From positions 1-28,901 of the forward strand of contig JAUHXI010000001.1 in assembly GCA_030426875.1 (NCBI GenBank): a DNA stretch of 28,901 nt, in the 5' to 3' direction. Positions within the stretch are counted from its first letter, which is position 1, and the number at the start of each line of letters is the position of its first letter. Made by a program: the position numbers and the translations under genes. This document shows positions 3,153 to 25,108 of the stretch, one piece after another. Under the pieces are notes generated by a model. The model was given only the letters and a program-made list of their open reading frames with translations. It was not told where the DNA came from and ran no database searches. This stretch comes from a bacterium (GTDB taxonomy: Bacteria > Patescibacteriota > Gracilibacteria > UM-FILTER-43-11).

Positions 3153-3182
3153 TTGACAAGATTACCTAAAATTAATTACACT
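3153..3182 (+). promoter_or_regulatory. sigma70-type promoter TTGACA-N18-TACACT pointing toward the HTH gene
   Basis: TTGACA 3153-3158 and TACACT 3177-3182 read directly from the sequence. Confidence 0.6.
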
Positions 3183-3189
3183 AGCTTCA

Positions 3190-3335
3190 GATTAGTTGAA
3201 TTAATCTAGATTTAATTAAATTAGTTTAAATTTAGTTAAAACTAATTTGAATTGAGAAAAGCTAATTAAATTAATATAAAACTAATAAAAATAAATAAAA
3301 CTTAATTGAATTGAACTAGTTTTAATTAAATTAAG
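3190..3335. repeat. AT-rich degenerate pentanucleotide array with 5-bp-phased AATT
   Basis: AATT starts at 3199, 3214, 3219, 3229, 3244, 3250, 3264, 3269, 3304, 3309, 3324 and 3329; 11 of 12 are congruent 4 mod 5. Stops are dense in the frames checked on both strands, so it looks noncoding. Confidence 0.75.
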
Positions 3336-3386
3336 TCATTTTTCTTTCCGCCTCTCAAAAATTTAAACCAAAATAAAAACTTGATT

Positions 3387-3557
3387 GTGACTCCAGTGAT
3401 TTACACCACCGAACAGATTGCAAAACTCCTCCAAATCCATCCGCTGACCGTGCTCAAATACATCAAAATGGGCAAGCTCAAGGCGGTTAAATTGGGTAGA
3501 GTCTATCGCATCACCGACAAATTTTTGCAAGAATTCATGAACAATGAGATGGCATAG
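3387..3557 (+). CDS. Excisionase/MerR-like HTH DNA-binding protein (HTH_17, Xis/BldC-like), 56 aa; absent from the ORF track
   Basis: Manual translation from GTG: (M)TPVIYTTEQIAKLLQIHPLTVLKYIKMGKLKAVKLGRVYRITDKFLQEFMNNEMA*. Matches the yT..E.A..L.v...Tv...i..G.L.a.k.G..yRi pattern. Start could also be TTG 3381 or GTG 3396. Confidence 0.88.
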   Translation: MTPVIYTTEQIAKLLQIHPLTVLKYIKMGKLKAVKLGRVYRITDKFLQEFMNNEMA

Positions 3558-3620
3558 CCCTCATTTATTCAGCCCTCTCCACCCTTGACTTTCGGCTGAA
3601 AAACAAACAAAAAACGTCCG

Positions 3621-3923: not shown

Positions 3924-5405
3924 TCACTGACTACACTGATACTTTGCCACAAAGGACACTTCCTTTGTTAGACTAGTGATACTGGAGCCCCCCTTATCTT
4001 GTTCTTGATACCCCTGGGCAATCACGGCGTTCATGACAGAAAGCTCACTGTCCATTTGTTTAATGGCTTCCTCGGCCACACTGTCTAGGGTGATGGCATA
4101 AACAATAGCTGTTTGAGCTTCCTTTTGAGCGATTTCATTCTCCTCTTTTTCATCAATTTGTTCACTAAGCAAGTCCGTCAAAGACCTCACCTCATCTAAA
4201 CTTTCGTAGCGAGTGCAGTTGATTCCTTGTGCCTTTGCAATCTCTTCCTCTTTTCTACAGAGCTTGAGCTCCTCCAGTTGCTGATCATCACAATCATAAA
4301 ATTTACTTTTTTCCGGGTAATAAATCACACAGTCAGATGTTTTATCGGTGTCTAAGCCCCCATATTCCCAGAGACTCTTGTCAAAAAGTGGGGTGACCGG
4401 CCCAACCATATTTTTAACAATCTCCAATTGAGTGCTCACTTCCCCTGTAAATTTATCCCAGCCGCCCCCTTTCACCAGACTCTGAATCTGAGCCCCCTCC
4501 TCCCCCGCAATCGTCAGACTGATCTGATTGGCAGCAGTCCATTGTTTTGCCCTGACTCGAGCATTGGCCCGCGCCATGTCCCAGATACTCCCCCAGGCGG
4601 CATTGTCAGTTTGAACATCTGTTTTTCCTTCATTATTAGACCAGATCACATTTTCGCCACTGCTAATCGAAGCAATGCTATTCCAACTATTCACCACTTG
4701 TTTGATGGCCTGCTCAAACTCGCCATCAGGACAACCGGTGTCATCGGAATGAAAATATTTTCGCGTGTATAAATTGATGGCATTCTCAGCCGAGGCCTCC
4801 ATGCCAAAAAAATATTCATTAGAAGAGACTGTCACCAATTCACCAGATTGATTTCTAGCAGAAATTGGAGCATTAGGATCCGAACCATATTTGCGCAACA
4901 GATCAATCTCGTTGATTAAATAAAGATAATCCTCCTTCAATAAACCCCCGTGAATAGGATCATATAGTAGATAGGAACGGATCATTTCTTGTCCCACCAC
5001 ATCTCTCAAGCTTTCCAAGCTCCAGATCTCATCTCGCAAACAATTGCTGATGAATTGTTCGTTGTATGCATTGTAATTGAAGACCATAAAAAGCGAATCA
5101 TAAGGGTTTTGAATTACAGCATCGTAGGTATTCTCCAGTACCAATTCTTGCGCAACTCTAGCTTGCCCAGATATCCCAGTTTCCTCTCCCTGCGCTTCTT
5201 CCACCTCCCTCATGGTCTTGATGGTTTCAATGGCACTCAACAAGCTCCCCGCCCCATTCACACTTTGCGAACTGAGCATGTGCTCCTTGATGACCGACAC
5301 ATTGCGAGAAATAGTGGGAGAATAAAGCGCTTGCACACTTTGCACATTCAAACCCATCAGTAGAACAAAAGTTAATCCTGTGATGAATAATGATTTAGGT
5401 TTCAT
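3924..5405 (-). CDS. Uncharacterised exported protein, 493 aa, last gene of the secreted cluster
   Basis: Sec signal MKPKSLFITGLTFVLLMGLNVQSVQA; acidic, helical, scattered Cys, C-terminal QC; no recognised domain. Confidence 0.8.
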   Translation of the reverse strand: MKPKSLFITGLTFVLLMGLNVQSVQALYSPTISRNVSVIKEHMLSSQSVNGAGSLLSAIETIKTMREVEEAQGEETGISGQARVAQELVLENTYDAVIQNPYDSLFMVFNYNAYNEQFISNCLRDEIWSLESLRDVVGQEMIRSYLLYDPIHGGLLKEDYLYLINEIDLLRKYGSDPNAPISARNQSGELVTVSSNEYFFGMEASAENAINLYTRKYFHSDDTGCPDGEFEQAIKQVVNSWNSIASISSGENVIWSNNEGKTDVQTDNAAWGSIWDMARANARVRAKQWTAANQISLTIAGEEGAQIQSLVKGGGWDKFTGEVSTQLEIVKNMVGPVTPLFDKSLWEYGGLDTDKTSDCVIYYPEKSKFYDCDDQQLEELKLCRKEEEIAKAQGINCTRYESLDEVRSLTDLLSEQIDEKEENEIAQKEAQTAIVYAITLDSVAEEAIKQMDSELSVMNAVIAQGYQEQDKGGSSITSLTKEVSFVAKYQCSQ

Positions 5406-5466
5406 TTATTTTTTTTATTGCTTTGTAGAACGGAATTCCCACTCAGCGTTCTAAATTTTAAAGTGG

Positions 5467-7371
5467 TTATATATTTAAATCTCTACAAAAATCTTTTTCA
5501 TTCAAGGCTGTGCCTTCCACCATGCTGTTATACGTGCTCTGCATGGCGGCGAAACTATTTTTCATTTGAGTGAGTAAATCCACCACGCGTAACATTTCTA
5601 TATCGCTGATGGCTTTGGTGCCAATGTGATAGTGTTTAATGGCTTCATTGATTGCCTTTTGTTCTTCCTCATTTCTGGTTTTTGCATTTTGAAGTTGCTG
5701 GGTGCTGGTTTGAGTGTTTTCAGCAGAGGTTAAGGGTTTGTTGGCATCTGTCAGGATTTTTTTGATGCTGTCATTGGCTTCTTCAATAGCCTTCTCAGCG
5801 GTTAGGGTTTCAGTCAGTTCGACGCGTGGTTTGACTAAAGTGATCATGTTGAATGAAAAGCTGGGCCCAAACTTACTACTCAAGCCAAAGGCCGCAGAGG
5901 TGTTCTCAAATGGCGAAACATTGGTGGCTAGTGCTTCTTCTAATGCGTCAGCCATGGCAGTGATGTGACAATCAATGCAACCTTCGTTCAAATTGTAGGG
6001 CGCTAAGGGCCGGTTATTTTTAGTCACATCCACACAAAATCCAGCCTCGATGGAAGTGGCAAAGCCAGCCAGATCACTATCATCTTCCCAATTGTCTCCA
6101 AATAGTAGATCACGCGCCCCATCAAAATCACCGCACAAAAATTCTGTCTGCATGCAGATGGGGTCTCCTTCATCATTCAGAGCGATCTTCTTTTCACCAA
6201 GCACGGTGATTTCTATGGGGCTTTCACCCGGTCCGCAAGGGGGCCGTTGGCTTTCGCCAAATTCCTTCAGGGTTCCGCCCACATGCGGCCCAGGGTAGGC
6301 AGGGTTTTGAGCCACGTCTCCCACATTCAATCCATCATCTTTCTTTGGCACGGTTCCGGGGGGACAGACATTGTTATCATCTCCCCCAGCATTTTCCGGC
6401 TTTTTAAAGGTGATGGCGTCCGGATCTTTACAGATGTCACTTGAACCTGTCAGTTCAATCTCACAAAATTGATTGCAACCGTCTCCCGATGTTCGGTTGC
6501 CATCATCACAGGTTTCTCCTAAATCTTTATTCACACTCCCATTCCCACACAAAGGGCTACCTGGATTGGCATTCGGATCTGCGTCAGGATCATCAGGAGG
6601 GACGCATTCAACCGGTTTTTCCTCTTCCTCCACATCCTGACCTTGATTGGGGTTCAAATCAATATCGATCAAGTCATTGAGTGGGATTGGCTCATCCTCC
6701 TCTTCACCTGGAGGGGCTGGGAATTGGTAAACATCACCCATCCAGTCTGCCTGGCTTCCAAATAAGACAATTTCAATCAAATTCAAGTCCACCATCAAAT
6801 CAAAACGAGCATCAAGTGGTCCTCCCACCTGTCCATCCCAAAATTTTTCAGACGCTTGAAATTTCATTTTTAAAGACTTTTGGTTGAAAAATAGGGCTTT
6901 TTCCTTTTCAAAACTTTCCCGGACGTCAAACAAAAAGCTTTGAGAAAAAAATTGATCATTTTCGGAGCCCTCTTCAACACTACAGGCTTTGCGCAATGCC
7001 TCAGGCAGTTTGCTCACCGCTTCGGCACCCATTTCTTCAGTGATTTTTTTGCAGATCTCGTCATCTAAAATAGCCGTGACCAATTCAGGTTCGATGTCAT
7101 ATTGATCGGCTACAATTTGTAACACTTCTTCATCGGCTTTCAGTGAATCCCCATCCGCATTCACATGATTCCCAATCTCACAATAGGTTTGTTGATAGGT
7201 GTTTTTAAGCTCAGCCGTAAAACAATAATTAGCCGCTTCCACTTTTTGACTCATCCCCCATAAAATGACTAGAGCAGCTAGACCGATGATTGTTTTTAGG
7301 TTTTTATTCAAAATTAGTAATGATTCATTTTTATTTTTTTCATTGAATTCGGGCTCAACTGATACTCGCAT
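5467..7371 (-). CDS. Uncharacterised exported Cys-rich protein, 634 aa, with one myxococcal Cys-rich repeat (DUF4215-like)
   Basis: Signal-like KTIIGLAALVILWGMSQKVEA; CGNG......ETCDDGNRTSGDGCNQFCEIE at 6454-6549; C-terminal helical region. The true start may be a few codons downstream of 7371. Confidence 0.8.
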   Translation of the reverse strand: MRVSVEPEFNEKNKNESLLILNKNLKTIIGLAALVILWGMSQKVEAANYCFTAELKNTYQQTYCEIGNHVNADGDSLKADEEVLQIVADQYDIEPELVTAILDDEICKKITEEMGAEAVSKLPEALRKACSVEEGSENDQFFSQSFLFDVRESFEKEKALFFNQKSLKMKFQASEKFWDGQVGGPLDARFDLMVDLNLIEIVLFGSQADWMGDVYQFPAPPGEEEDEPIPLNDLIDIDLNPNQGQDVEEEEKPVECVPPDDPDADPNANPGSPLCGNGSVNKDLGETCDDGNRTSGDGCNQFCEIELTGSSDICKDPDAITFKKPENAGGDDNNVCPPGTVPKKDDGLNVGDVAQNPAYPGPHVGGTLKEFGESQRPPCGPGESPIEITVLGEKKIALNDEGDPICMQTEFLCGDFDGARDLLFGDNWEDDSDLAGFATSIEAGFCVDVTKNNRPLAPYNLNEGCIDCHITAMADALEEALATNVSPFENTSAAFGLSSKFGPSFSFNMITLVKPRVELTETLTAEKAIEEANDSIKKILTDANKPLTSAENTQTSTQQLQNAKTRNEEEQKAINEAIKHYHIGTKAISDIEMLRVVDLLTQMKNSFAAMQSTYNSMVEGTALNEKDFCRDLNI

Positions 7372-8149
7372 CCCTCAACTGATCGGGTAGCGGTTCGATC
7401 AAATTCCTGAGCTCTTCTAAGGCTTTACGGTATTTTTCCAACCCTTTTAAGGTGCATTGAAAGTGCACATGCATCACAAAAGCCATGCGAAGTTCTTTTA
7501 AATAACTGAACATCAGGTCGATGGTCACTAAAGAACTATCAATCTCCATTTGACGCTCCAAATTGATGCGTTCCACGGTGCTCGTGCGCTCATAAAGGCC
7601 CTCGTCAGACGTGGCTCGAATGGGAAGGTCTCCCACATAAAAAACCAGACTGGAATATGACTCGCCCAGTTCATTCAAATGAGCACTGTAGTCACTGTGG
7701 GCTTTGAGTACCGGTCCTAGCATCTGCTCAGGGCTACTGTCATTGATGATTTGATTGATTTCAGTCTGAGCCAAACACGCTTGATCAGGCACCATCCAGT
7801 CGATCACCTTGGTATTGGGCGTGTTGGCTTCTACAATGCCCCGTTGCTTGAATTTATCATCTTTATAAACCGTGCTTTCGGCGTACTCAAACAAGCACCC
7901 CACATAGCTGTGATAAATGAGTTGAGATCGCTCGAAAACAGCGGCATAAACCTCATAATTAATGGCCTCAGCATTTTCGATGAGGCTAGCAATTTCCTTG
8001 TCTTCATCATAATTAGGAATCAAAGGTGCACACGCTTCTTCGGCCAGGGTCAGGGTTTCATTGTCTTGAGCAAAAGTCACGGCTCCACCATTCAAAAACA
8101 AGGTGAACATCAGGGACATGCCGATGATTTTTTGGATTTGTTTTTTCAT
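7355..8149 (-). CDS. Uncharacterised exported protein, 264 aa from ATG 8149
   Basis: MKKQIQKIIGMSLMFTLFLNGGAVTFA is a typical signal peptide. Starting at 8149 instead of 8185 removes the overlap with the upstream gene. Confidence 0.8.
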   Translation of the reverse strand: MKKQIQKIIGMSLMFTLFLNGGAVTFAQDNETLTLAEEACAPLIPNYDEDKEIASLIENAEAINYEVYAAVFERSQLIYHSYVGCLFEYAESTVYKDDKFKQRGIVEANTPNTKVIDWMVPDQACLAQTEINQIINDSSPEQMLGPVLKAHSDYSAHLNELGESYSSLVFYVGDLPIRATSDEGLYERTSTVERINLERQMEIDSSLVTIDLMFSYLKELRMAFVMHVHFQCTLKGLEKYRKALEELRNLIEPLPDQLRDASIS

Positions 8150-8162
8150 TTTTATTCTTTTA

Positions 8163-8981
8163 TTAGGTGCATTTTTTGGCCACACAATACAGACGTTGGT
8201 CCAGTTGACTTAAAAAATTATAAACATAGGTCAGATGGGTTTCCATGGCATGCATTTTGGTCACAATTGACGCGAGTTTATTCTCTAAGGCACTTGCCTT
8301 TTGCTCAGCATGACTCGTTTTTAAGGCGGTTTCCATCACGGCAATGGCAGTGCTTTGATTCAGGCCATTGGCACAGGCTTCAAAATCATCAGCGCTGGGA
8401 TCACAGCCAAACTTTCGTTCAATGGTGGCTTTGCAAGCTTCAAAGTTGGTGTTGACGGCCACAACGTTCACAGCGCTTTCATTGTTCGAAACCCCTGCTT
8501 GGCAGGCAGGAAAATAATTGATTCGCGTATTGTTTGTAGCCAACAGAGGCACCTTTTGCATCTTGTCTACAAAAGAGGCGTAGTCTGTTCCCAAGGTTAT
8601 GTCTTCAGCGTCTTGACAACCAGGCACTTCTCCCAAGTGCACACTGGTCAGGCCGGCCACCCCACTTTCTATGGGTGCATAGCCGCTATACTGCACACTC
8701 CGGCAAATGTATTCGAGCCAACAGTTGTAGGTTCTCAGATTTTCATAAGCATCATCCACCATTTCACTGGCAGGCCTCTCTTGACCCGTCAAAATATTAA
8801 GGCTGGCTTCCCAATCACTCTCAACCGCTTCAATGGCTCCATTATATTGCTCACAACACGCTACATCACCCGCATCGGAACAACGGTTAGAAATTTCGGG
8901 GTCAGCCGATTGGGCATGGGTCATCTGATTCCAACTGACAAACGCAATGCCGATGATGAGAATTGTTTTAAACCGTTTCAT
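8163..8981 (-). CDS. Uncharacterised exported Cys-rich protein, 272 aa
   Basis: Signal MKRFKTILIIGIAFVSWNQMTHA; multiple Cys (CC, CWLEYIC, C-terminal C...KC); long C-terminal amphipathic helix. Confidence 0.8.
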   Translation of the reverse strand: MKRFKTILIIGIAFVSWNQMTHAQSADPEISNRCSDAGDVACCEQYNGAIEAVESDWEASLNILTGQERPASEMVDDAYENLRTYNCWLEYICRSVQYSGYAPIESGVAGLTSVHLGEVPGCQDAEDITLGTDYASFVDKMQKVPLLATNNTRINYFPACQAGVSNNESAVNVVAVNTNFEACKATIERKFGCDPSADDFEACANGLNQSTAIAVMETALKTSHAEQKASALENKLASIVTKMHAMETHLTYVYNFLSQLDQRLYCVAKKCT

Positions 8982-9167
8982 TGTTTTGTTATTATTTATT
9001 CACATTACGCGCCGTTTGCTCAGCATGTTGTGTGAGGGGTGGTTAGTTTTTTGCATGAATTTTTAGCGGAGTTAAAAATGGTTGTTTTGCTTATCGCTTA
9101 CCGCTACCCACTTACGGCTTTCTAAAGTTTAGCAATCATAACGTAAGATTAGTGGTGCAAATTTCTA

Positions 9168-12100
9168 TCAATCATAAGTAAGTTCCTTGCTCTGACTAAA
9201 AATAATCGAATGCGTCTCAAGGTCCGTGATGGCGGTCATGAAGACATCTCCTGGCATGAAGTCAGATTTATAATCGATGAGTCCACACAGGGGTCCAGGG
9301 CCAACATATACCCCCGGATCTTTGAGGGGAAAATCATCACTCAATTCAGGGCAGCCATCTACATCATTCACCCCATCTAAGTCTTCAGGGATGTTGGGGC
9401 AAAGGTCTTGAGCTTGGCAAACGTCTCCAATGCCATTGTTGTCTGTGTCCAGTTGGTTCGAATTGGGATCGAAGATGCAATTGTCCTCATTATCAATGAG
9501 CTTACTTTGATCCAGCAGTCCACTGTTGTCAAAAATACACATGGGATTGTTGACCAAATCACCATCAATATCAATATCACAGGCATCTTTGGTGCCATCT
9601 CCATCGGTATCATTTGCATTTGGATTGTCCAAACACGGACAGACTTCACAGACATCTCCCACGCCATTCAAATCAAAATCAGCTTGATCCGGATTGGGTG
9701 TGAAGAGACAGTTATCCACCGGTTCCCCTAATTGCGGACCCGCTTGTTCCAACAGCGCCTGGCTAAAATCACCACCCGAATCAAACACACAAATGGGATT
9801 TAGAGCCCCGTCTCCATCAATGTCCAGGTCACACACATCTCGTCTGCCATCTCCATCAGAATCTTGTTGGTTGGGATTGTCGATACAAGGGCAAGTTTCC
9901 TCCGCGTCCGGTCGAAGCGGGTCACGGTTATTGTCCATTTCCCACCAGTCAGGATTGCCATCATCATCCTCATCCACCAGGCGACACTGTTGGAAGTTTT
10001 TCAACGTCGCAGCCATGAAGGCAAATTCACCACGTGTGATTTTTTCGTCAGGATTCACCACACCATCCACTTCAGGAATCAGTCCAAATTCAACCGCCGT
10101 GTACACATAATCTTTGTACCAGGCGTAATCTTCCACATCCGTAAATGTATTGTCTGGAGCCGTTAACAATGGAATATCCGCCTGGCGAATCAGCACAGCA
10201 CTGGCCTCAGCCCGACTGATGTTTTGGCTCGGTCTAAATTGACCATCCCCATAACCAGTGATCATCTCCAATTCCTTCGCCACCCAAATGCAGTAAAAGA
10301 ACCAGTCAGAAAGCTCCACATCCGGAAAAGGGTTGGTCAAATAACGAGCGATTTGAGGGTCAGTGGGATATTGACAGTCAAAACAATTGGTCACACCCAA
10401 GGCGATCTTCACAAATTCGGCTCGAGTGATCTCTTGATCAGAGCGGAAAGTGCCATCGTCAAAGCCAATCAACACCTCAGCGTCATACAGTTCCAGAATT
10501 TCATAATAAAATTCATCACCCGGATTCAGGTCAGAAAAAGGATTGCTCGGCAATTGTGGTCCATCGGTCCCGTCACCAACACTTGGCAAGGCCGGTGTTT
10601 GAGTTTGTTCAGCCTCAGCTTCGGCGGCAAAGTCAGTCTCCAAACTATTCATCATTGTGTCCATGTCGATCTCCATCTCATTCCAATCCGCCTGAATGAA
10701 GACCTCAAATAAAGCCGTTTGCCCCTGCATGATTTGGAAGATATAATTCCCTTCATTTGGAATGGCATTCTTAAGCTTCAGGTCAAAGCCAGGTTGCATC
10801 AAGCGAATGGCCCCGTCTTTATCAACCATGGCGATTACCTCCTCATTTTCTTGATTGAAAATAGCGGCCCCACCAGCAAAACTCGGTGCACCCGCTGGAA
10901 TTGGCTCGGCCACAACTTGATCGTTCACCTCCACATCGCCCACGGTTGTACCCACGTCATTCACGTTCCCCGCATTCAGTGCTGTTTGAATGATGGCCAC
11001 ATCCTCATCCGTGCTGCTGATATAATAAACGTTAGCCATGATTTCTTGACTGCTCTTGAACACAACCGCAATCCGGGTCGGCGTTTCGTTCGTTGCAGCC
11101 ACCGCCACCAGTTCATAATTGTCATCAAAAATATCGATCTTTCCATTACCCGTCAGGATCTCAGCAATCAAATTCCCCTGATGGTCTTTGATGATAATGG
11201 GGCTGGGATCTAGCACATCAAAGCCTTCAATTTCGTAATCGCCATTCGCCGTGATGGTGTAATAACTGTCATCCTCTTCGCTAAGGGGTGGCAAAGTGGG
11301 CTCCTTGCTCTCATTCTCCGCATGCAAAATCCCAACATTCTTCCACGTCTCATTTCGTTTACGGAAGACGCTGAAGGGGATATTGGTCAAATCTTCTCCC
11401 ACTTTCTCAGGCGTCATGTCGCCCGCAATCAAGCCTTCATCCAATCTAGTCTGACTCAAATTCACATCTGGTGCATACACTTCAATCAAAAATTCTTTCT
11501 CAAACACCTCAAAGCTGGGGTCCTCCAAATTCTGGGAGGCAATCAAACTCACAGGAATATTCTTAAGCTCATCTTGAGGGGGGATGATCAATTTTTCACC
11601 CTCCTGAGGCTCAGTGTTTTTGTTCTCGGGATCAATGTGCCAGTAGTAGGTGTAATTGCCACCCAAATCCACAAAAATATCACTCGCATTGATGGTTTTT
11701 TCTGTAAAGATGGGCACCTTCACGGTGTCATCTTGGCTGATGTCCAACGGTTCAAATCCTCCTGCCACCAATTGCGGTGCTAAGATCTCACTTTGATTGT
11801 AATTAGCCAGCCGGGCCAACGCGTCAAACCAGGTCATACGGATATGATAGAAGCCATTTTCCATCTGCATTTCGTACCCGTTGCCTTGCAGTTGGTCAAA
11901 ATAAACCGCACTGTAGGCCGACACGTCAATTTTAGCATCGTTCACCGTCGGAAAATGAATTTCACTCGCATTGATCACAGTTTGATTAGGCTTTATGCCA
12001 AAGCGTTCAACGGCTTCTTGCTGATTGTCCAAGCTGGTCACCAGCGTTCCAAATTCTAATTTAACCCCGCCCACAAAAACGTCCGGCGTTTCACCCTCCT

Positions 12101-15100: not shown

Positions 15101-18100
15101 GATCCCCAATGGCTTGCATGGTCTGATGCGTTTCAGCCGCCGAACCATCCATGGTGTTATACCAACTCTCAAACTGTTGCTGAGTGCGTTCAAAATCCAA
15201 GGTCACTAAATTCTTGGTATCTGGCAAATAAACACTAAGCGTGGGCAGTGTCAGCAGTTTATTTTGCACTTCCAACATCTGCCGATCGACCCAGTTGGCC
15301 AAAACACCGCCCAACGAATCAAAGCTCTTCAAATGAATGTTTGAATATGCATTCACCGGAGGTTCAAATTTTAGATTATTGCCTAAGTTAATAGCCAAAC
15401 TGACCTCCAGACCACCCGCCCCTTGCTGAGGTCCAACCGGTTGAATGTCCACAGGAATATTGGGATTATTGGTCGCACTATTCGCCGCAGATTCAATTTT
15501 AGTCACACCAGACGAAATGGCATCCATGATCTGATCAACGCCTTTTTCAATGTCAGAACAAAGCCCACCGTAAAGATCATCAGCCGGAAGTGCCTTGACC
15601 ATACAATTCCCAGTGGGAGGGGGGTAAGGAATAGGAAAAACAGGAGGTGGTACCACTGCTGATTCCGGATAGGGCCCCCAACACGTAGCAATTCCTATAC
15701 CACCGGTTATAGTTGGAGCTACATACACCCGTATGAATGATTGATAAGGAGGCTCAACGTTCTCCACCCTCACCGCTCCAGGAAATAAAATCGGAAAACC
15801 AGAGGGTAGGGGTTGTATGCCAACCGTTGTGGGCACACTGGTGGGATGAGCAAATACAGGGTAAGGCATCTCTGGTGGAACCATAAAAGCCCGGTTGAAA
15901 GGCATTGGAAAGCAACCCCCGCCCGTACAACTAAAATCCTCAACCGCTTGAGCCACATCATCCAAAGCGGCTTCCACACACGAAGTAGGGTCATTTGGAT
16001 CTTCATAACATTCTCCGTTGCCCGTGGCTTCTTCCAAGGCTTCTCCCATGCCTGGGAATTTGAGTGGTTCCGGTGGGTCATCCACGTCCAGTTCCTGACC
16101 GCCAAGCGCCTCCATTTGAGCCATCATTTCATTAAAGCCAGTCACCTGTTCCATGGGCTTCACTGGCTCAGGGGTATTACTTTGAACAATGTCATAATCA
16201 CGTTCAGCAACGCTATAATGAATCAGCCATTGACCCGTATTGTTAAAGGGTGGTGAGACAATGATATCTTTATACTCATCTATGATGGACCCTGGGTCAT
16301 TCAAATTTTCATTCGGCTCATCAATGGTTTGAATGCTGACGTCAGCTTCGGGTGTCTGACTCACAAACGTTTCATACCGGATGATGGTTTTTTGATCTTC
16401 AAACAAGCTCAATTCACTCAAAAACAAACGGGTTCCATTCAATTTGACCTCCATGTTTTCACAACCGCCCTGCACACATGTCAACGAGTTGGGGTCAAAA
16501 TCTAGGGCATCAGGCACCGTGTCGGCTAGCACTGTGTCGCCAAAATCACTCACACTATTGAGTTCAATTTCATACACCAGCACCTCTTCAACATCCACAT
16601 TGCCCTGCCCCGGCCGGTCTTTATTGCTGACGGATTTGGTCACATTCAACCCTCCAATGCCTTCAATGGGGGCAAAATAAGTTTGAATCTCATCTCCCTC
16701 TGGCCACTGAAGTTTGGGAACCCCGGTTTGAGCATACGCATAAGGATCTTCTGCCATGGCTGCAGCCTCCTCGTTCAGTTGTTCATAAAACTCAAGCGCC
16801 ACCTCATCATCAATCTCGCCCCCCCCTTCATATTCATCCAAGGGCACGTTAGAAACTTGAATCTGACTCTGGGCCTGCTCCTGAGGGTCAGTGGGTTCTG
16901 GCATGTTCTGGTAGCGGATGTCCACATCGGTATTCAGGTTTTCATCCAACTGCAAGCTGAAGCCGTAATTTTCAATCAATAAACCATTTTCAGGAAAACG
17001 CTCCGTTTCAGCATCATAATAAAAAATAAAAAGATCGCCACGACTGTCCAAAATCACCAAGTCTTCAAACCCATCCTGATCCATGTCATCCATCAAAAGT
17101 TTATAAATTTTCTTCCCAATGTTCAGGATTTGATCCGTGCGCTCCATCACCTCCTCCCGGTTATGTAAAATGGCCAATCGCCCTTCTTCGGTAGCAATGA
17201 GCAAGTCTTCATAGCCATCATTCTCAAAATCCACCGCTTCTAAGGCAACTCCTCCATCAGCCAATTTTGCAATGTCACCCCGGTCTTTAAAGGGCGGCTC
17301 GGTGGGACCTCCTTCCAACAGCCGCACCCGTCCGTCTTCAGTCAATGCAGCCACATCTTGATACTCATCATTATTAAAATTAAAATGATTGATGGACACA
17401 ATCTGAGAACCTTCCGGGTCTTCATAAATCTGCTGGCCGACGGCATTGTTAAAATTCAAACCATTGTTACTCTTAGTTTCAAGTTTTATGGTCGGATCGC
17501 CCAACAAAATACCCGTTGTGGGCAAATTGAACCGAACCGCCTCTCCCACATTGGTGCCGCTGGCAAAAGCAGCCAAATAGTCATGCTCTCCCTCTAACCC
17601 ATAAAACTCAGCCCGTTGAGATTCTTCAACCTCTGCTTCTGAATCAAAAAAGCTTAACCCCTTGGCCCCACTCGTGCTAGAACCCGAATATGTGGAATGC
17701 CACTGCAAATTAGGATTGACCTCCTTAAAATTCTCAACGGACAGATTTTCATCTTCTAAATTCAAAATCACCCGGGCAATGTTCCGCGTGCCGTCATTCA
17801 AAGTCAATTCCACCGCATCAAATTCTGGATCCAGCACATAATCCCAGGCAAAATCAGGATGTAGCAATTGAAGTCCATTTTTTTTCAAGTTAACAACATC
17901 ATCCCCTAAAACACTCGAAATTCGATAGCCCAGTGGGTTTTCAACTGCTTCATAATTGCTGTCCAACATTTCCAAATAAAGCTTCCCTTTTTCCAAGTTT
18001 TCATCCGGTAACATTTCAACCGCGTCAAAATTCAACATCACGGTCTTACTGATCAACGTCTGCATTTTCTTTTGATCGAAGGCTTGCAAAGCCATGAATG

Positions 18101-20276
18101 GCCCAGCAAATTCAACCAAGACATCGTGTCCATTATCAGTCACTTCAATCAAGTGATTGGGGCTAATACTGACTGTTTTTTCAGGACTGGGACTGTCTAA
18201 AAAGGAATAGACAGCCTGAGTTTTACCCCCCATCAATTGCACCCCACCAAAATAATCCTCCTCCATCACTTTCCCCGCCGGAAACCCCACAAGCGAGGCA
18301 AAAAGCGTTTGAGGGTAAGTACTGGCCCATGTCTCACTGTCCACGCGGGCCATCAGAGCCAGGGAAATCTGAGCCGACTTCAAGTCCTCATGTTGCGCCG
18401 TCACAATGATGTCCGAGGTGTCTTGCCCCGCATTAACCACAATGGTGCCTCGCCCGTTCACCATCTGCACACCTGGGTTTTGTAACGTGGCATAAGGGTC
18501 TGAAGAAGCCGTCAAATCCGCCACAATAAACTCATTAAACGTGTCCACAATAAAGCCAAATTCATCCGCAGCAATCACCTCAATCTCCACCATTTCACCC
18601 ACCACTACGGTCTCATCCGCTGTCCTAAGAATTAGCTGAGAGGCCTCCATTTTACTAGGTTCTATCACATGTTTTTCTCCCTGAATGAACAAATCCTTAC
18701 TCATCAAAGTCACCGTCTGTCGACCAGGAGTCGGAATAAAAGTACTCTGTCCCTTGCCATCCACAAGCGACACCCGACCTTCCTGCACAAAACCTCCATC
18801 CGCTGGGAGCTCTGAACTCAAAACAATCTGATCATTGACACCGGTCACAGGGTTATTATTCTGATCCACCACCGTAACTGTCACCGCAAATTCTGAGCGC
18901 CCATTGGTGATATTTTCAACAGACGACCATTGTAAGCCAAGTGAATCATGGACAGTGATTTCAAACACTTTAGGCGGCATGTCAGCCATGCGAACCGTTA
19001 ATGTTGACGAACCAGCCTTTTCAGGTCTAAAGGTCACCAATTTTTGTCCAGAAAAAATATACGCCTCCGCCTCCGAAAACACACCCAGGTCCGGATCACT
19101 CAGTTCAAAAGTAACTGGGGTATCAATGTAGCCAAACATTTGATTGCCATTCCCATCAAAAGCTGTCACATTGATTTGAGCCTCCTGACCCACAAGCAAT
19201 GCAGTTCGGCTCATGTTAACTTCAAAACCATCTGCTTTGGGCAGCAATTGGTCAAAAATATCTGCCCCATCTTCCACAGTCGTTCCCTGAGGCGGCAAAG
19301 GGGCGGCACTGCACATCTGACTCAAAGCGAACAAGTCATTTGCTGGCAAAATTTCCTCCTCAATCCAACACTGCACCGAATCAAACCATTCCCACACCTC
19401 CACCCCCGATGGATCTCCACAAACATAATTACCACTCCCTGGATTGTTGCCCGGAGTGTTCTGATTTTGCTGCTTTTTTTCTTCCGCCTCCTTCTCTGAT
19501 TCGGTATTGAGGGCCTCCAGCTCCCCCTCCACATCCGTTTCACCACTCTGGGCCAGCATGGCCCGATTGAGTCCAAATTCAAACCCTTGAGCGTCGCCTT
19601 CAGCCACAATATGAAGCACCTCATACCCATCCGGCTGATTTTCTGGAGACTGTGCTGGGTTATAAAACGGCGTGGGCATAAAGCTGTCCCGGTCGGTATA
19701 TTTAGGGATGATTTCCATCAATTTTTGATCCACACTAGAGCTTTTCCAAATCAACGGTTCAATCAATTCAGGATTCTCGACAAAATAATCTTCAAACAAA
19801 GTGGTGTTGGCGCCAGTGACTTGACTGAGCTCCGCCTGCTTCTGATCCACTTTCTCCAAAAAATTGGTGGTGATTTCCTCAAAATTATCCCCCTCCATGC
19901 GAAAGAGGTTCAAATATTTAAAGTCATCCAACTGGCCATTTTTAACAAATGAAATACGCCGCGTCCCATCCGATGGCGTGCTAAAGGTGGTGATTTCAGG
20001 ATAAGTGAATTCGTCAGTATCCGGATCCACACGCGGTTCCCCAAAATGAGTGATCGATTGCAAGGTTTCATTGGTCGGCTCTACTCGAGGGTAAACGCTG
20101 TCAATGAATTGACTGGTCGGCTCCACACTCAGTTCTACCTCAATGTCCAGTAGTGGTACGTAACTCAATGTTTGTTTGCTTTCAATTAGGGTCTTGATTA
20201 CAAACTCGGCTTTTTCTTTGAGGGAAATCTTTCGCCAATCCTCGTCGCGTTCGGCCCCGATCAAAGCGGCGCCCAT
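9168..20276 (-). CDS. Giant cell-surface protein, C-terminal 3702 aa: Ig-like, FG-GAP/VCBS, DUF11, Pro-rich core, 3 SLH, TSP3 repeats; probably the continuation of 20261-22084
   Basis: 11.1-kb open frame. The domains are visible in the translation (see sub-features). There is no signal peptide at its own ATG. Confidence 0.88.
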   Translation of the reverse strand: MGAALIGAERDEDWRKISLKEKAEFVIKTLIESKQTLSYVPLLDIEVELSVEPTSQFIDSVYPRVEPTNETLQSITHFGEPRVDPDTDEFTYPEITTFSTPSDGTRRISFVKNGQLDDFKYLNLFRMEGDNFEEITTNFLEKVDQKQAELSQVTGANTTLFEDYFVENPELIEPLIWKSSSVDQKLMEIIPKYTDRDSFMPTPFYNPAQSPENQPDGYEVLHIVAEGDAQGFEFGLNRAMLAQSGETDVEGELEALNTESEKEAEEKKQQNQNTPGNNPGSGNYVCGDPSGVEVWEWFDSVQCWIEEEILPANDLFALSQMCSAAPLPPQGTTVEDGADIFDQLLPKADGFEVNMSRTALLVGQEAQINVTAFDGNGNQMFGYIDTPVTFELSDPDLGVFSEAEAYIFSGQKLVTFRPEKAGSSTLTVRMADMPPKVFEITVHDSLGLQWSSVENITNGRSEFAVTVTVVDQNNNPVTGVNDQIVLSSELPADGGFVQEGRVSLVDGKGQSTFIPTPGRQTVTLMSKDLFIQGEKHVIEPSKMEASQLILRTADETVVVGEMVEIEVIAADEFGFIVDTFNEFIVADLTASSDPYATLQNPGVQMVNGRGTIVVNAGQDTSDIIVTAQHEDLKSAQISLALMARVDSETWASTYPQTLFASLVGFPAGKVMEEDYFGGVQLMGGKTQAVYSFLDSPSPEKTVSISPNHLIEVTDNGHDVLVEFAGPFMALQAFDQKKMQTLISKTVMLNFDAVEMLPDENLEKGKLYLEMLDSNYEAVENPLGYRISSVLGDDVVNLKKNGLQLLHPDFAWDYVLDPEFDAVELTLNDGTRNIARVILNLEDENLSVENFKEVNPNLQWHSTYSGSSTSGAKGLSFFDSEAEVEESQRAEFYGLEGEHDYLAAFASGTNVGEAVRFNLPTTGILLGDPTIKLETKSNNGLNFNNAVGQQIYEDPEGSQIVSINHFNFNNDEYQDVAALTEDGRVRLLEGGPTEPPFKDRGDIAKLADGGVALEAVDFENDGYEDLLIATEEGRLAILHNREEVMERTDQILNIGKKIYKLLMDDMDQDGFEDLVILDSRGDLFIFYYDAETERFPENGLLIENYGFSLQLDENLNTDVDIRYQNMPEPTDPQEQAQSQIQVSNVPLDEYEGGGEIDDEVALEFYEQLNEEAAAMAEDPYAYAQTGVPKLQWPEGDEIQTYFAPIEGIGGLNVTKSVSNKDRPGQGNVDVEEVLVYEIELNSVSDFGDTVLADTVPDALDFDPNSLTCVQGGCENMEVKLNGTRLFLSELSLFEDQKTIIRYETFVSQTPEADVSIQTIDEPNENLNDPGSIIDEYKDIIVSPPFNNTGQWLIHYSVAERDYDIVQSNTPEPVKPMEQVTGFNEMMAQMEALGGQELDVDDPPEPLKFPGMGEALEEATGNGECYEDPNDPTSCVEAALDDVAQAVEDFSCTGGGCFPMPFNRAFMVPPEMPYPVFAHPTSVPTTVGIQPLPSGFPILFPGAVRVENVEPPYQSFIRVYVAPTITGGIGIATCWGPYPESAVVPPPVFPIPYPPPTGNCMVKALPADDLYGGLCSDIEKGVDQIMDAISSGVTKIESAANSATNNPNIPVDIQPVGPQQGAGGLEVSLAINLGNNLKFEPPVNAYSNIHLKSFDSLGGVLANWVDRQMLEVQNKLLTLPTLSVYLPDTKNLVTLDFERTQQQFESWYNTMDGSAAETHQTMQAIGDQEYVTTIDGEDTFPQILRSGLQDVSGSRALQYRNAIESQASIYNLNALEGLYDVAQTMPMVELTEKPIEFTVPWLSTGEIQAYIVELQNWIIYYEQEYDRVKDMWEAISCQDLPDPENPDGRIENSVNCTGRYLADAFNANYDEVIESAKQNIAVLESYLAFPKELSNYKTQMAGYVGSVSCYMDIIAQMMAGHMATIQQEMITWAEMILTIQEIVKNIKELFDVFTAFETNCDTCTNERFANFGWWSLLGLVLPDIPVIQFPKIPDIVLDLSNIEVALDVELPVLNIRPEPIPLPPLPYVTLPDFPTVDIFLQLPPLPILPELPELPELPDLPPLPVVELPTLPSPPKLPDVGKAFDIILPLIEKILQTWCMIKKSLAPVPEMALNNQISLLTSRPAYLTPFDLLQVQMPNIALFDTGYNELRIETIVYLGIELDVFADPLETAAETWNAWIDEIPIAMEEGYRSYLELTEEQLQEVLQEADDFIDGTATAFENAYEEYVQGWLDKEVGDPLAEADQWARDKEAEWEEWAELNEINTVIDVTYSEWIEDVNNSYDWLRNVKDEDVNAFFDDNRDIIHALNYVMPKNFLMELADRDDAAEYLKEMIDFSADKLDQIDTLGPTVLNRLHACLLYYEDCRANEEKYFGSTQAKLQEVKEDIQIALTELPDNPSDGGFEEAPVLNQEEVLAQQILETPEGQDMVSMFNEIGAAIDEVNEAEWVEYTVLKERFGVPDYQIVLESPAIDKINEMKSELALHAEQLYMEAEATKTANLTDIAGVAPQELVPYELASFNTNEAGQEERVFTSAVEMPGLLDNNFEPLTEEKIVDVDLTPLDEAEYKGNDEQLNPVQNNAGCLADVCLPDPITQKPVPVISNIEFLATSETLFMPNGHIVYSDGTGLYLKRDLTLDDSEENTDNGTPQRFSIEELESRMRIGQVPRDAINMMQTSFTENGAATFNWEAPTHPDFYGYGIELEKVISGYDSDRQDLQMADTRILLLPVNEEGETPDVFVGGVKLEFGTLVTSLDNQQEAVERFGIKPNQTVINASEIHFPTVNDAKIDVSAYSAVYFDQLQGNGYEMQMENGFYHIRMTWFDALARLANYNQSEILAPQLVAGGFEPLDISQDDTVKVPIFTEKTINASDIFVDLGGNYTYYWHIDPENKNTEPQEGEKLIIPPQDELKNIPVSLIASQNLEDPSFEVFEKEFLIEVYAPDVNLSQTRLDEGLIAGDMTPEKVGEDLTNIPFSVFRKRNETWKNVGILHAENESKEPTLPPLSEEDDSYYTITANGDYEIEGFDVLDPSPIIIKDHQGNLIAEILTGNGKIDIFDDNYELVAVAATNETPTRIAVVFKSSQEIMANVYYISSTDEDVAIIQTALNAGNVNDVGTTVGDVEVNDQVVAEPIPAGAPSFAGGAAIFNQENEEVIAMVDKDGAIRLMQPGFDLKLKNAIPNEGNYIFQIMQGQTALFEVFIQADWNEMEIDMDTMMNSLETDFAAEAEAEQTQTPALPSVGDGTDGPQLPSNPFSDLNPGDEFYYEILELYDAEVLIGFDDGTFRSDQEITRAEFVKIALGVTNCFDCQYPTDPQIARYLTNPFPDVELSDWFFYCIWVAKELEMITGYGDGQFRPSQNISRAEASAVLIRQADIPLLTAPDNTFTDVEDYAWYKDYVYTAVEFGLIPEVDGVVNPDEKITRGEFAFMAATLKNFQQCRLVDEDDDGNPDWWEMDNNRDPLRPDAEETCPCIDNPNQQDSDGDGRRDVCDLDIDGDGALNPICVFDSGGDFSQALLEQAGPQLGEPVDNCLFTPNPDQADFDLNGVGDVCEVCPCLDNPNANDTDGDGTKDACDIDIDGDLVNNPMCIFDNSGLLDQSKLIDNEDNCIFDPNSNQLDTDNNGIGDVCQAQDLCPNIPEDLDGVNDVDGCPELSDDFPLKDPGVYVGPGPLCGLIDYKSDFMPGDVFMTAITDLETHSIIFSQSKELTYD
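9343..9975 (-). other. Thrombospondin type-3-like Ca-binding repeats in the giant protein
   Basis: CP..DNPNQ.D.DGDG..D.CD.D.DGD and DNC...PN.DQ.D.D.NG.GD.C repeated; terminal DLCP..PED.DG..D.DGCPE. Confidence 0.85.
10008..10545 (-). other. Three S-layer homology (SLH) domains in the giant protein
   Basis: PFSDL...IGFDDGTFRSDQEITRAEF; PFPDV..DWF...ITGYGDGQFRPSQNISRAEA; TFTDV...AWY...NPDEKITRGEF. Confidence 0.9.
14107..14133. repeat. Three 9-bp tandem units encoding (LPE)n in the Pro-rich core
   Basis: TCTGGCAAC TCTGGCAAC TCTGGCAAT. Confidence 0.8.
16365..16650 (-). other. DUF11 (conserved repeat, Ig-like) domain in the giant protein
   Basis: LNVTKSV.......VDVEEVLVYEIEL......VLADTVPDALDFDPNSL.....L......KTIIRYE. 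Confidence 0.75.
17014..17394 (-). other. FG-GAP/VCBS-type repeats (three visible) in the giant protein
   Basis: FNFNNDEYQDVAAL..DG.V.LL; VDFENDGYEDLLIA..EG.L.IL.N; DDMDQDGFEDLVIL...G.LFIFY. Confidence 0.8.
18360..19230 (-). other. About three invasin/Big_1-like Ig domains in the giant protein
   Basis: Repeated I.VTA.D.NGN, VTVTVVDQNNNP and IEVIAADEFG strands followed by G.V.L..G.G motifs. Confidence 0.6.
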
Positions 20277-22084
20277 GATTCGGTTGGCCCGCTCGGGGAA
20301 AAGTTCGGCGAAGGGGCTTGTAAATTACCATTCAACTCAAGGTAGGCGGTTTCAATCACCGTATCCAAATCTTGCCCGATTTGAATCTGACCCAATTGAC
20401 CTACAGCCGCTCCATTATCAAATTGAGTTTCATCTTGAAGCAAAAAATCCATCCGCTCAAAAGAGCAGCGGTTGGCATCCGAATAAACAACTTCATCTGG
20501 CTCAAGCTCCAAAGAACCATTGATGTCAAAAAGGGATTGAGTGGCTTCATTTACATTACATTTATCTGGACTGGTGCCTTGGTCTTCATCTTCAAATCGA
20601 TTGTTATAAACACACCCTGCTGCGCCAATGTATTCAGATTGTTCCTCTAGTTTCCAATTGTCTTCCCCCTCTTCAGGTGTCAAGAGACTCCTAAACGCAT
20701 TGAACTGATTGGCATTCACCACAACGGAATTGTCTTCCAATGTGCTCACGTTATCATTATGCTCGGTCCCCACTTGAATCCCACACTGAGAAGTCGATTG
20801 GACGGTGTTGATTTCAACACCGTCAATGTAACTATAAAAGTCAAAAAACTCCGTGTTGATTGGAATTTCGGTGATGTCCACAGAGACCTTCAACGCCCCC
20901 TTGGTCACTACTTCCACCGCCCGCTCCGGAGGGGGAATCGCCGTTGTAACAAACTCATCCACCGCTTGTTCTAGCTCCAGCTGACTCCGATGAATCTCAT
21001 GCCGAGCATACTCATCACGCAAGGTGATCAACGACTCAAGCGAATCAACCTGGCCAGCATCCCAACGACCCGTTTGCTCAGCCACTTCATTTAATCCTCC
21101 TCGGTATATTTTTAGCGCATCCGCAAAGTCGAGTGTGTATTGGTCAAAATAAATTTCAGTGTGAATGTCGAACATGTTTTCAATCGTCGACTCGTCCACC
21201 AAAGGATCATCACTGCCCATGTCCTGTTTGACCCGATCCAAAAATTCCACCAACAAATGCTTGTTATAACGTCTAAAGGTCATTTCCTCCATGTAGTCCA
21301 GATAGCGCTGATAACTGTCATAATCCATGGCATTCATCTGAGCCTCCATGTCAGAAAAGTTAGCATACAGCAAACGTTGCTCAAACGTATCGTAGCCATT
21401 TTGACCATTGCTATAGTCATTGTTTTTCTCAAAAAAAGCCGTCAACTCCTCCTCAGCTTCCACAGGGTCTTGGCTAGGGGCTCGAATCACGCCATGCCAC
21501 ACTTCGGGATTGGGCTCGTTCACACCCGAATTTTTTTCAAACTGCTGAGTCTCATGATCATAAATATAGGCCTTACGGTAAAAATCCGTGTAGGGATACA
21601 GGCTGGGCAAAAAATTTCCATCCCCCTCATGAACCACCGGCAAAGGCACTTCTCCAATCGCTATCACCCCTATCAATTGATTGTCATCAGTGGTCACTGC
21701 GTCGTCATTCAAGGGATTGCCATCAATGAGCTCGGTGTCGATGCCTTCAAAATAAAGCTGCTCCAGAATGTTTGAAATCCGATAAGTCGATTCATCTTCA
21801 GCAACTTCCATCACAAAGGCCTTCGAATGGGGGACTCTAGACTGAGCATTCTCCGCATAAGTCATGATTCGAGCGCGCATGGCAAAATCGCTCATCAATT
21901 CCTCTTCGACCAAAATAGCGATGATGCCCAGTTGATCATTAGGGCTGTCATCATCGGCATAAACGTCTGGCACATCAAAAGGAAATTGGCCTGTTTGGTT
22001 TCCCAAAACAACCATGATCAGAAGCCCGGCGATGAGGCGTTTTATTTTTTCGATTTTTTTGTTTATTTTTAGAGCTTTTTTCAA
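20261..22084 (-). CDS. N-terminal part of the giant surface protein, with signal peptide and a possible gingipain/C25-like subdomain; the last 20 codons are probably out of frame
   Basis: TTG 22084 follows AGGAGA and an extended -10. The basic N-terminus plus hydrophobic RLIAGLLIMVVLG forms an export signal. The ORF track start at 22132 overlaps the promoter. Confidence 0.8.
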   Translation of the reverse strand: MKKALKINKKIEKIKRLIAGLLIMVVLGNQTGQFPFDVPDVYADDDSPNDQLGIIAILVEEELMSDFAMRARIMTYAENAQSRVPHSKAFVMEVAEDESTYRISNILEQLYFEGIDTELIDGNPLNDDAVTTDDNQLIGVIAIGEVPLPVVHEGDGNFLPSLYPYTDFYRKAYIYDHETQQFEKNSGVNEPNPEVWHGVIRAPSQDPVEAEEELTAFFEKNNDYSNGQNGYDTFEQRLLYANFSDMEAQMNAMDYDSYQRYLDYMEEMTFRRYNKHLLVEFLDRVKQDMGSDDPLVDESTIENMFDIHTEIYFDQYTLDFADALKIYRGGLNEVAEQTGRWDAGQVDSLESLITLRDEYARHEIHRSQLELEQAVDEFVTTAIPPPERAVEVVTKGALKVSVDITEIPINTEFFDFYSYIDGVEINTVQSTSQCGIQVGTEHNDNVSTLEDNSVVVNANQFNAFRSLLTPEEGEDNWKLEEQSEYIGAAGCVYNNRFEDEDQGTSPDKCNVNEATQSLFDINGSLELEPDEVVYSDANRCSFERMDFLLQDETQFDNGAAVGQLGQIQIGQDLDTVIETAYLELNGNLQAPSPNFSPSGPTESWAPL

Positions 22085-22102
22085 GGAATCTCCTACTGGA
22101 TG

Positions 22103-22111
22103 ATTATAGCA
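22103..22111 (-). promoter_or_regulatory. Extended -10 promoter (TGCTATAAT) for the secreted cluster, followed by an AGGAGA RBS
   Basis: Minus strand: ...tttt TGC TATAAT catccagt AGGAGA ttcc TTG. Confidence 0.7.
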
Positions 22112-22561: not shown

Positions 22562-23248
22562 TTAACGACCAGAAAACTCCAAAGCCGCCTCCTTGGCCCA
22601 ATTTTCTTCAATGAATCCTTTTCGACCGGAGCCTTCAGCGTATTGCTCATAATAATCGGCACTTTTTTTGTAGAAATCTTGATGGAATTCTTCTGCGGGG
22701 AAAAATGTTGTGAAGGGGTCAATCACAGTGGCTATAGGGTCTTCAAACTTTTCCATTTCCTCTAATGACTCCACACTCTCCAAAGCTAAGGCTTGTTGCG
22801 CCTCATCGTGGTAAAAAATAGCGGTTGTGTACTGAAACCCTCGGTCTGCAAATTGACCTGTGGGATCAGTGGGGTCGATTTGGCGCCAGTATGTGTCTAA
22901 AAGGGTCTCGTAACTCACCACCTGCGAGTCATAGCTCACCTGAACTGCCTCTCGATGGCCCGTTGCTCCGCTGCTAACCTCTGCATAATTCGCCCTTGCC
23001 TCAGTGCCCCCAGCGTAACCAGAAATCACTTCAGTCACTCCTTCAAGGGCTTCAAATGAGGGTTCCATGCACCAAAAACAACCTCCTGCAAAGGTTGCAA
23101 TTGAATCGGCTTCATAAGTTTGAAGCGCTTCTACCATGCTTTGCTGAGTCATCTCTTCTTCAGGGAGCTCATTTGATGGGGTGCAACTTGAGATTAAAAA
23201 TGTGGAGACAACAACTGCTAAGGTGAATGCGTGTCGGTTCATCAGCAT
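22562..23248 (-). CDS. msrA: Peptide-methionine (S)-S-oxide reductase MsrA, exported lipoprotein, GCFWC type
   Basis: FAGGCFWCME, SGYAGG, GH.EAVQ, QIDPTD..GQF.DRG.QY, AEEFHQDFY; N-terminal lipobox ...FLISS-C. Confidence 0.93.
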   Translation of the reverse strand: MLMNRHAFTLAVVVSTFLISSCTPSNELPEEEMTQQSMVEALQTYEADSIATFAGGCFWCMEPSFEALEGVTEVISGYAGGTEARANYAEVSSGATGHREAVQVSYDSQVVSYETLLDTYWRQIDPTDPTGQFADRGFQYTTAIFYHDEAQQALALESVESLEEMEKFEDPIATVIDPFTTFFPAEEFHQDFYKKSADYYEQYAEGSGRKGFIEENWAKEAALEFSGR

Positions 23249-25067: not shown

Positions 25068-25073
25068 ATCTCA

Positions 25074-25102: not shown

Positions 25103-25108
25103 TCCAAA

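Follow-up and report, generated by a model that had tools for sequence, protein, structure and literature searches.

A conserved operon of Gracilibacteria encoding a giant modular surface protein and four secreted cysteine-containing partners, a candidate cell-contact apparatus

Introduction

Outside the Saccharibacteria, little is known of how members of the Patescibacteria, or candidate phyla radiation (CPR), hold on to their hosts and exploit them. Giant surface proteins of Vampirococcus have been proposed as mediators of host attachment (PMC8080830), and the searchable text of two papers describes giant surface proteins of Vampirococcus and Strigamonas, reaching 4,163 amino acids (aa), as likely attachment factors (PMC8080830, PMC13059738). 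Here we analyze a stretch of 28,901 nucleotides (nt) of contig JAUHXI010000001.1 (assembly GCA_030426875.1), hereafter the window, whose minus strand carries a gene for a giant modular protein together with four small genes, A to D. These genes make up a five-gene module of exported proteins that is real, ancient, and vertically inherited, and we lean, if not strongly, towards the view that the giant and A–D form one cell-surface structure, most likely for contact with a host cell. The organism had been placed in the CPR by a preliminary description of this DNA, correctly so, as the source names Peregrinibacteria/Patescibacteria; it is of the Peregrinibacteria type and belongs to the class uniting Peregrinibacteria with the TGA-recoded lineages BD1-5/Gracilibacteria and SR1/Absconditabacteria.

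Compared with the described giants, the 4,153-aa FG-GAP protein of V. lugosii (P0107) is a homolog of the window's giant, with which it has the propeller and core in common and shares, at a weak score (E 1.2e-6), part of the N-domain. Vampirococcus-type giants lack the SLH/TSP3 tail that the window's giant has, and, unlike in the window, the partner genes do not adjoin the giant in those recoded lineages that were sampled, namely f12, f23, and P0100 with its locus L037. The searchable text of PMC8080830 and PMC13059738 deals with large proteins in general and offers there no description of the giant family, its core, or its partner genes. A second described set comes from a related lineage, the Peribacteria, in which large Cys-rich proteins that are exported and contain a repeat resembling pappalysin have been noted (PMC4736985); these proteins carry FG-GAP annotations and, like protein C, weakly resemble pappalysin and the Cys-rich repeat of Myxococcus. 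Compared by description, the Peribacteria set has about 7% Cys and a 14-gene cluster, whereas the proteins studied here have about 1–4% Cys and are encoded in a fixed five-gene operon. A Gracilibacteria metaproteome detected VCBS-annotated proteins (PMC11452946), and a link from these to the giant family could not be made.

A five-gene module conserved across the class

The reading frames of the module, in the order giant, A, B, C, D, are as follows.

20261 to 22084, minus strand: first open reading frame (ORF) of the giant gene, 607 aa; TTG start, signal/anchor segment, and conserved N-domain (residues ~10–450)
9168 to 20276, minus strand: second ORF of the giant gene, 3,702 aa; homology support from nt 20222 (Leu19) on
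8163 to 8981, minus strand: gene A, 272 aa; secreted product containing 12 Cys, invariant ones among them, whose C-terminal helix ends C-x4-C
7355 to 8149, minus strand: gene B, 264 aa; secreted product containing 4 Cys, in which a C-terminal segment, HFQC...YR...LR...DAS, is highly conserved
5467 to 7371, minus strand: gene C, 634 aa, 18 Cys; N-domain, Cys-rich acidic repeat, C-x-x-C-H domain, and C-terminal helix plus Cys
3924 to 5405, minus strand: gene D, 493 aa; secreted product containing 7 Cys, with a helical-bundle N-domain (residues 30–210) and C-terminal helices ending Q-C-x-N

The preliminary description had treated the small genes and the giant as one cluster, and this grouping is borne out by synteny in all relatives from the window's family whose contigs are long enough, as well as in six other families of the class. 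The order giant-A-B-C-D is present in 9/9 family loci covering the whole cluster and in the covered part of 7 partial loci, one of which (G025) belongs to the sister family f2. Closed or near-closed genomes from the six other families (G041, G056, G096, G199, G174, and G214) carry the order giant, A, B, C, followed by a fifth gene whose product, a secreted Cys protein, is homologous to D (hhalign 98.2%, E 5.8e-14). The D profile by itself had seemed to confine the module to the window's family, a restriction we rejected as reflecting the sensitivity limit of that profile. A profile of the giant N-domain matches 230 of the 301 sampled genomes of the class, TGA-recoded families included, while the corresponding N-domain profile of C matches 178 of 301; for C the N-domain alone was used, as a search with the full-length profile returned about 60 true clusters before multi-repeat Cys-rich proteins swamped the list. 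Searches with the giant's core find giants of 4,000–5,500 aa labelled Gracilibacteria and Vampirococcus lugosii. At the family level the giant and the small genes co-occur and are co-absent, f9 (giant 0/40, C 1/40) and f17 (giant 0/12, C 0/12) being families without both. This class-wide range makes the finding stronger than first stated.

Conserved adjacency might also arise without a complex, the giant being a stand-alone adhesin and A–D independent secreted proteins, or helpers in folding and maturation, kept adjacent solely for co-expression. The module is indeed separable from the giant: G037 has the four small genes together and in order with the giant on a different contig, G157 has only B and C together, in the recoded G058 only C is detected, 311 kb from the giant, and at locus L037 of P0100, a Gracilibacteria genome, no partner gene lies within 10 kb of the giant. 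A complex prediction of A and B with the C-terminal parts of C and D also gave no support to an assembly, although its score (0.01) speaks neither for nor against binding. We nevertheless consider an arrangement of mere neighbors distinctly unlikely, since gene order and tight coupling survive very deep divergence (17–30% identity) and giant and C are absent together from f9 and f17.

The giant gene is probably continuous

The preliminary description had given the giant as one protein of ~4,300 aa; in the DNA as assembled, the gene is not one ORF and is present as two ORFs in different frames, of 607 and 3,702 aa. We rejected a one-base frameshift as the cause, because alignment with homologs across the junction instead fits an insert:

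20223 to 20308, minus strand: 86-nt frame-breaking segment, delimited by homolog alignment across the junction

The final 15 residues of the first ORF are out of register, and the homology of the relatives stops at ...NLQAPS, nt 20309. In the three nearest homologs, ...NLQNPS runs straight into AKQKATFV, corresponding to the window's ...GNLQAPS and LKEKAEFV, between which the segment lies; at the DNA level, the flanks read ...CAAGCCCCTTCG on one side and CTCAAAGAAAAA on the other. The segment has a GC content of 62%, against 41–43% in its flanks, and occurs once in the genome, with no further copy in the metagenome contig collection. Its removal yields a continuous frame of ~592 + 3,684 = 4,276 aa, which is the length of the nearest homolog, and the giant of relatives is a single ORF (4,171–4,340 aa, or 4,118–4,464 aa). 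Logan contigs of the two public runs holding the locus, which look like one data set of ~5x depth, stop at 20195 and restart at 20336, leaving 20196–20335 uncovered. Because the frame is restored without the 86 nt, the resulting length matches that of the homolog, and contigs break at this point, we read the split as probably an assembly artefact and not a dead gene.

A truly broken giant, that is, a pseudogene in a cluster decaying in this organism, would account for the two ORFs in different frames, and giants are split in G012, G023, and G096 as well. We regard decay as very unlikely, given that the break consists of a single foreign-looking 86-nt segment, that apart from it the two ORFs are conserved and undamaged along 13 kb, and that an independent assembly of the same ~5x runs breaks exactly there. 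The giants lying in two or more ORFs elsewhere (G096, loci L048/L049; G012, L011; G023, L017) include ones in single-contig assemblies; such cases indicate that public assemblies commonly show this 13-kb gene broken, in many instances perhaps through sequencing error.

Domain composition of the giant

Downstream of its N-terminal Sec-type signal and N-domain, the giant contains the following regions, numbered by residues of the second ORF.

18357 to 18923, minus strand: Ig-like domains, residues ~452–640; Big_1, Invasin_D3, and Glyco_hydro2_C5 matches
16977 to 17699, minus strand: FG-GAP beta-propeller-like region, residues ~860–1100; FG-GAP_3, 48.5 bits, 3 stretches
13707 to 16019, minus strand: core, residues 1420–2190, 770 aa; 54-sequence alignment
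9957 to 10559, minus strand: three SLH domains, residues ~3240–3440; PF00395, 88.1 bits, 3 stretches
9327 to 9884, minus strand: thrombospondin type-3 (TSP3) repeats, Asp-rich and of the Ca-binding type; PF02412, 34.7 bits (cut-off 25), 5 stretches

Four of the modules first listed for this protein, namely SLH, Ig-like, FG-GAP, and TSP3, were thus detected, although among the Ig-like matches only Glyco_hydro2_C5 exceeds its cut-off (34.1 bits vs 32). The fifth, DUF11 (PF01345), is absent from this giant, with no match in the whole protein or in its segments at E up to 1–10, and is present only in some distant homologs. The FG-GAP propeller-like region is kept across the class, as judged by BLASTP against distant giants, and the TSP3 region partly matches the TSP3 part of MtsC. 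With respect to the SLH domains, the genome encodes ~20 other SLH proteins and, on contig C99, a CsaB-like pyruvyl transferase (PF04230, 144.7 bits).

The N-domain and the 770-aa core of the giant have no Pfam, NCBIfam, or PDB-sequence match. Invariant Cys/Pro motifs mark the core, which also contains long helices, a hairpin of hydrophobic character, and a proline repeat of the form LP-x-LP (~nt 14043–14225). An AlphaFold2 (AF2) model built on its 54 diverse sequences, with a predicted local distance difference test (pLDDT) score of 64.7, shows long helices (one of ~90 residues), hairpins, and an unstructured LP-x-LP stretch, and Foldseek found no match to this fold in the PDB or in the AlphaFold DB clusters. 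The stem of the coronavirus spike S2 was a weak profile match for the core (E 0.004), which lacked fold support and was taken as coiled-coil noise. The N-domain was considered as peptidase C25-like on an Atlas score of 0.82, a candidate that we dropped as there was no Pfam match in 36 members and no PDB match. As for export by type I secretion of the LapA/SiiE type, no ABC, membrane fusion protein (MFP), or TolC exporter gene is present in the window, the rest of the genome not having been searched for one.

The four small secreted proteins

As described at the outset, every product of the cluster is predicted to be exported and is acidic and Cys-containing, with an N-terminal hydrophobic signal-like segment, an isoelectric point of 4.1–4.7, and 4–41 Cys. 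Many Cys are invariant in the alignments of all four small proteins, one or two of them lying at the extreme C-terminus behind a helix-compatible tail, and the genome encodes a VKOR homolog. The long amphipathic helices that had been ascribed to the ends of the partners are in part supported: the tails are poor in Pro and Gly and the D model ends in three helices, at moderate confidence, while the hydrophobic moment is only modest. A and B are possible distant paralogs (hhalign 53%), whereas the other pairs of small proteins are unrelated, and no homology of the small proteins to the giant core was found.

Proteins A, B, and D have no Pfam, NCBIfam, or PDB-sequence match, and for A the Pfam, NCBIfam, and PDB profiles returned neither a family nor a structure. 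The AF2 model of D (45 sequences, pLDDT 75.7) has a very confident helical-bundle N-domain, and structure searches with D in the PDB by Foldseek and in the ESM Atlas gave no informative match. Protein C combines an N-domain with the motif FDL..DLN.IE..LFG, one myxo-type Cys-rich acidic repeat (TIGR02232, 43.3 bits, cut-off 20.8) covering ~35 of its 634 residues and also matching pappalysin (E 2.5e-8), and a conserved domain with a C-x-x-C-H motif at residues 465–469. In the first C alignment (A3) the C, C, and H of this motif and a Met four residues beyond it are invariant, and in the wider A6 both Cys are nearly invariant. The C-x-x-C-H of protein C may be a metal or redox site; haem binding was rejected, no CcsA/CcmC-type gene (PF01578) having been found in the 82%-complete genome.

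That the small proteins are a divergent TraU/TraN/TraH/TraW-like conjugation or secretion set is extremely improbable. The clusters nearest to D in the Atlas by language-model features do include 'TraW-like', a weak lead at a score of 0.81 that falls under the lead threshold. Against this, no Tra family appears in Pfam at E up to 10 or in NCBIfam, and the cluster has no match to TraU/TraN/TraH or to any other secretion or conjugation family in Pfam, NCBIfam, or PDB profiles, in Foldseek searches with D and the core, or in the Atlas search with D; no fold match was obtained for D or the core, and the window contains no relaxase or VirB4/VirD4 gene. A likeness of the core's Cys/Pro motif to TraU, noted by eye, was rejected for want of support from the same profile and fold searches.

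Linkage to a PilB/PilC-like motor

The neighborhood of the giant in other families suggests cooperation between the structure and a type IV filament-type motor, or assembly of the structure by such a motor. The genes X-T2SSE-T2SSF lie directly 5' of the giant on the same strand in 19/19 genomes sampled from f25, f28, f32, f34, and f35, the giant-linked T2SSE matching PF00437 at ~420 bits and the platform gene T2SSF matching PF00482. Gene X, of ~400 aa and without a Pfam match, always stands ahead of the giant-linked T2SSE-T2SSF (L053:4190-5383, L057:11803-13080, and equivalents) and has 24–60% identity between the five families. Family f4 has T2SSE alone, 0.9 kb 5' of the giant, and f14 has T2SSF 3.2 kb 5'. 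The linked ATPase is a short paralog of 414–470 aa that exists alongside long PilB-like (554–667 aa) and PilT-like (~360 aa) copies. The genome of the window itself encodes an ortholog of the short T2SSE (57% identity) followed by T2SSF, on another contig.

Two proposals follow this linkage further, both of which we think unlikely at present. One is that the giant, A–D, the short PilB/PilC paralogs, and gene X make up an undescribed machine powered as type IV filaments are and specific to the Gracilibacteria class, the motor assembling or moving a giant/A–D complex that would be the physical bridge from these episymbionts and predators to the host cell. The other would make the module an accessory of a type IV filament system, with the giant and A–D as a tip, adhesin, or substrate complex assembled or pushed through the wall by the short PilB/PilC, in function comparable to PilY1 with minor pilins or to the piston of type II secretion with its cargo. 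The co-oriented genes in five families, together with those in f4 and f14, the distinctness of the short paralog from the canonical PilB-like and PilT-like copies, and the orthologous pair kept elsewhere in the window's genome all favor such an accessory role, and a large propeller protein accompanied by four small ones resembles the PilY1/minor-pilin arrangement. Speaking against it, the signal peptides of A–D are ordinary, with A-x-A-like cleavage sites, neither A–D here nor those of the six other families have the prepilin Gly(-1)/Glu(+5) motif, and the window's cluster contains no match to the PilY1 family.

Proposed function

In the model that we favor, all five products would be exported by Sec, and their conserved cysteines would be oxidised outside the cell, the genome having a VKOR homolog, to give disulfide-stabilised proteins. 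Three SLH domains near the C-terminus would, in this lineage, fix the giant to a wall polymer, as the presence of a CsaB-like enzyme in the genome would allow. The helical and proline-rich core could then act as a rigid spacer, and the Ig-like, FG-GAP propeller, and Ca-binding TSP3 modules as binding surfaces. Coupled translation would supply A–D in fixed proportion, for docking on conserved parts of the giant, and contact with another cell, the host, would be the most likely role. Physical assembly of the five products and the function in host attachment are predictions, and the dependent lifestyle that it presupposes is itself drawn from PMC4736985 and PMC8080830.

Several observations weigh against this model. 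In the recoded lineages the giant and C are widely separated, and no A, B, or D was found. Within the family the giants align collinearly, with few indels and without any hypervariable block, a pattern that suits a housekeeping scaffold at least as well as an adhesin specific to a host. In the window's family, of which six genomes were covered, and in f8, f10, f12, f16, f19, f23, f27, f29, f30, and f31, no PilB/PilC-like gene was found within 7 kb 5' of the giant, nor does one adjoin the giant in f18 (G041), a distribution that also counts against an accessory filament module; the five motor-linked families may be one clade, in which case their linkage would represent a single evolutionary event. 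Finally, the signal peptides were assigned by eye and hydropathy only.

The collinearity of the giant is one reason to consider a housekeeping envelope scaffold, in which the five products would be parts of the wall or S-layer zone serving spacing, shape, or division, with no host recognition. The module is single-copy per genome and near-universal in the class; SLH anchoring and the ~20 other SLH proteins point to an S-layer-type envelope, and the long helices and proline rod of the modelled core would be typical of spacers. Yet f9 and f17 are without both the giant and C, so a scaffold of this kind is not essential for this cell type, and Ig-like, FG-GAP, and TSP3 domains are typical binding modules. 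We therefore hold the scaffold to be doubtful and retain host-cell contact as the preferred role for the giant and A–D.

The operon is kept across a class to which Vampirococcus and Absconditicoccus, both predators in culture, belong, and it contributes four protein families and a 770-residue core without recognisable relatives. The giant cluster is a concrete and testable candidate for a cell-contact apparatus, and the N-domains of the giant and of C provide sequence markers for recognising that apparatus in metagenomes, proteomic data, or cryo-electron tomography data.

Organization of the locus and neighboring genes

The five genes are co-oriented on the minus strand, as first described, with the spacings that were then given: 13 bp between A and B, a 17-bp overlap of B with C, and 61 bp between C and D, computed with the ATG at 8149 as the start of gene B. 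The giant starts with the TTG at 22084, behind a ribosome-binding site, AGGAGA, at 22089–22094. Start/stop overlaps or tiny intergenic gaps are seen here and in relatives, where the giant-A distance is 0–7 bp, which fits a single transcription unit. The preliminary description had placed all five genes behind one extended -10 promoter, corresponding to this element:

22103 to 22111, minus strand: extended -10-like element TGcTATAAT, 5' of the giant gene; read directly

The element can be read at that position, although it is a consensus match only and is not among the sites listed by our promoter scan, which requires a -35 match; the same scan found a second promoter-like site at 9198–9171, before gene A. 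The statement that the cluster encodes no ATPase, permease, or enzyme agrees with our Pfam and NCBIfam profile searches, in which the proteins of the window's cluster matched no such family. The genome of the window has one copy of the cluster, and the operon amounts to ~1% of a 1–1.5 Mb genome.

Just 3' of gene D, on the opposite strand, a small unlisted ORF at ~3430–3590 (plus strand) looks by eye like an excisionase/MerR-type helix-turn-helix protein, and ahead of it lies an extremely AT-rich stretch (~3160–3400) with a long A/T tract. On the other side of the cluster, tandem methionine sulfoxide reductase A (MsrA) genes (PF01625) occupy 22562–23248 and 23451–23939 on the minus strand, the first with a 50-residue N-terminal extension that is a possible export signal; the two MsrA genes, with VKOR elsewhere in the genome, hint at repair of oxidised exported proteins. 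Beyond them are a class II fumarase (Lyase_1 + FumaraseC_C) at 25016–26497 (plus strand), which is unusual for small-genome CPR bacteria, and ORFs of 531 aa (26582–28177, plus strand) and 210 aa (28185–28817, minus strand) without a Pfam family.

Comparison with known systems

In the literature covered, which is incomplete, we found no description of the core, of A–D, of the conserved operon, or of the linkage to a PilB/PilC paralog. Among characterised systems, the anchoring scaffoldins of clostridial cellulosomes are likewise very large modular proteins that sit on a wall polymer by an SLH triplet and carry other secreted proteins. Unlike them, the window's cluster has no cohesin or dockerin modules and no enzymes, and its partners are new families. 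PilY1 and the minor pilins offer a second parallel, in that a large propeller-bearing Ca-binding adhesin is encoded with small exported proteins, of which there are four here, and in five families the giant cluster is co-oriented directly behind PilB/PilC-like genes. The differences are that the small proteins are not pilins, lacking a prepilin signal, and that the PilY1 family is not matched; moreover, the giant is four times larger than PilY1 and predicted to be anchored to the wall by SLH domains, and no pilus genes are linked to it in the window. The operon thus belongs to a kind already known, that of a large modular surface adhesin with accessory proteins, and may at the same time represent a new apparatus coupled to a pilus motor.

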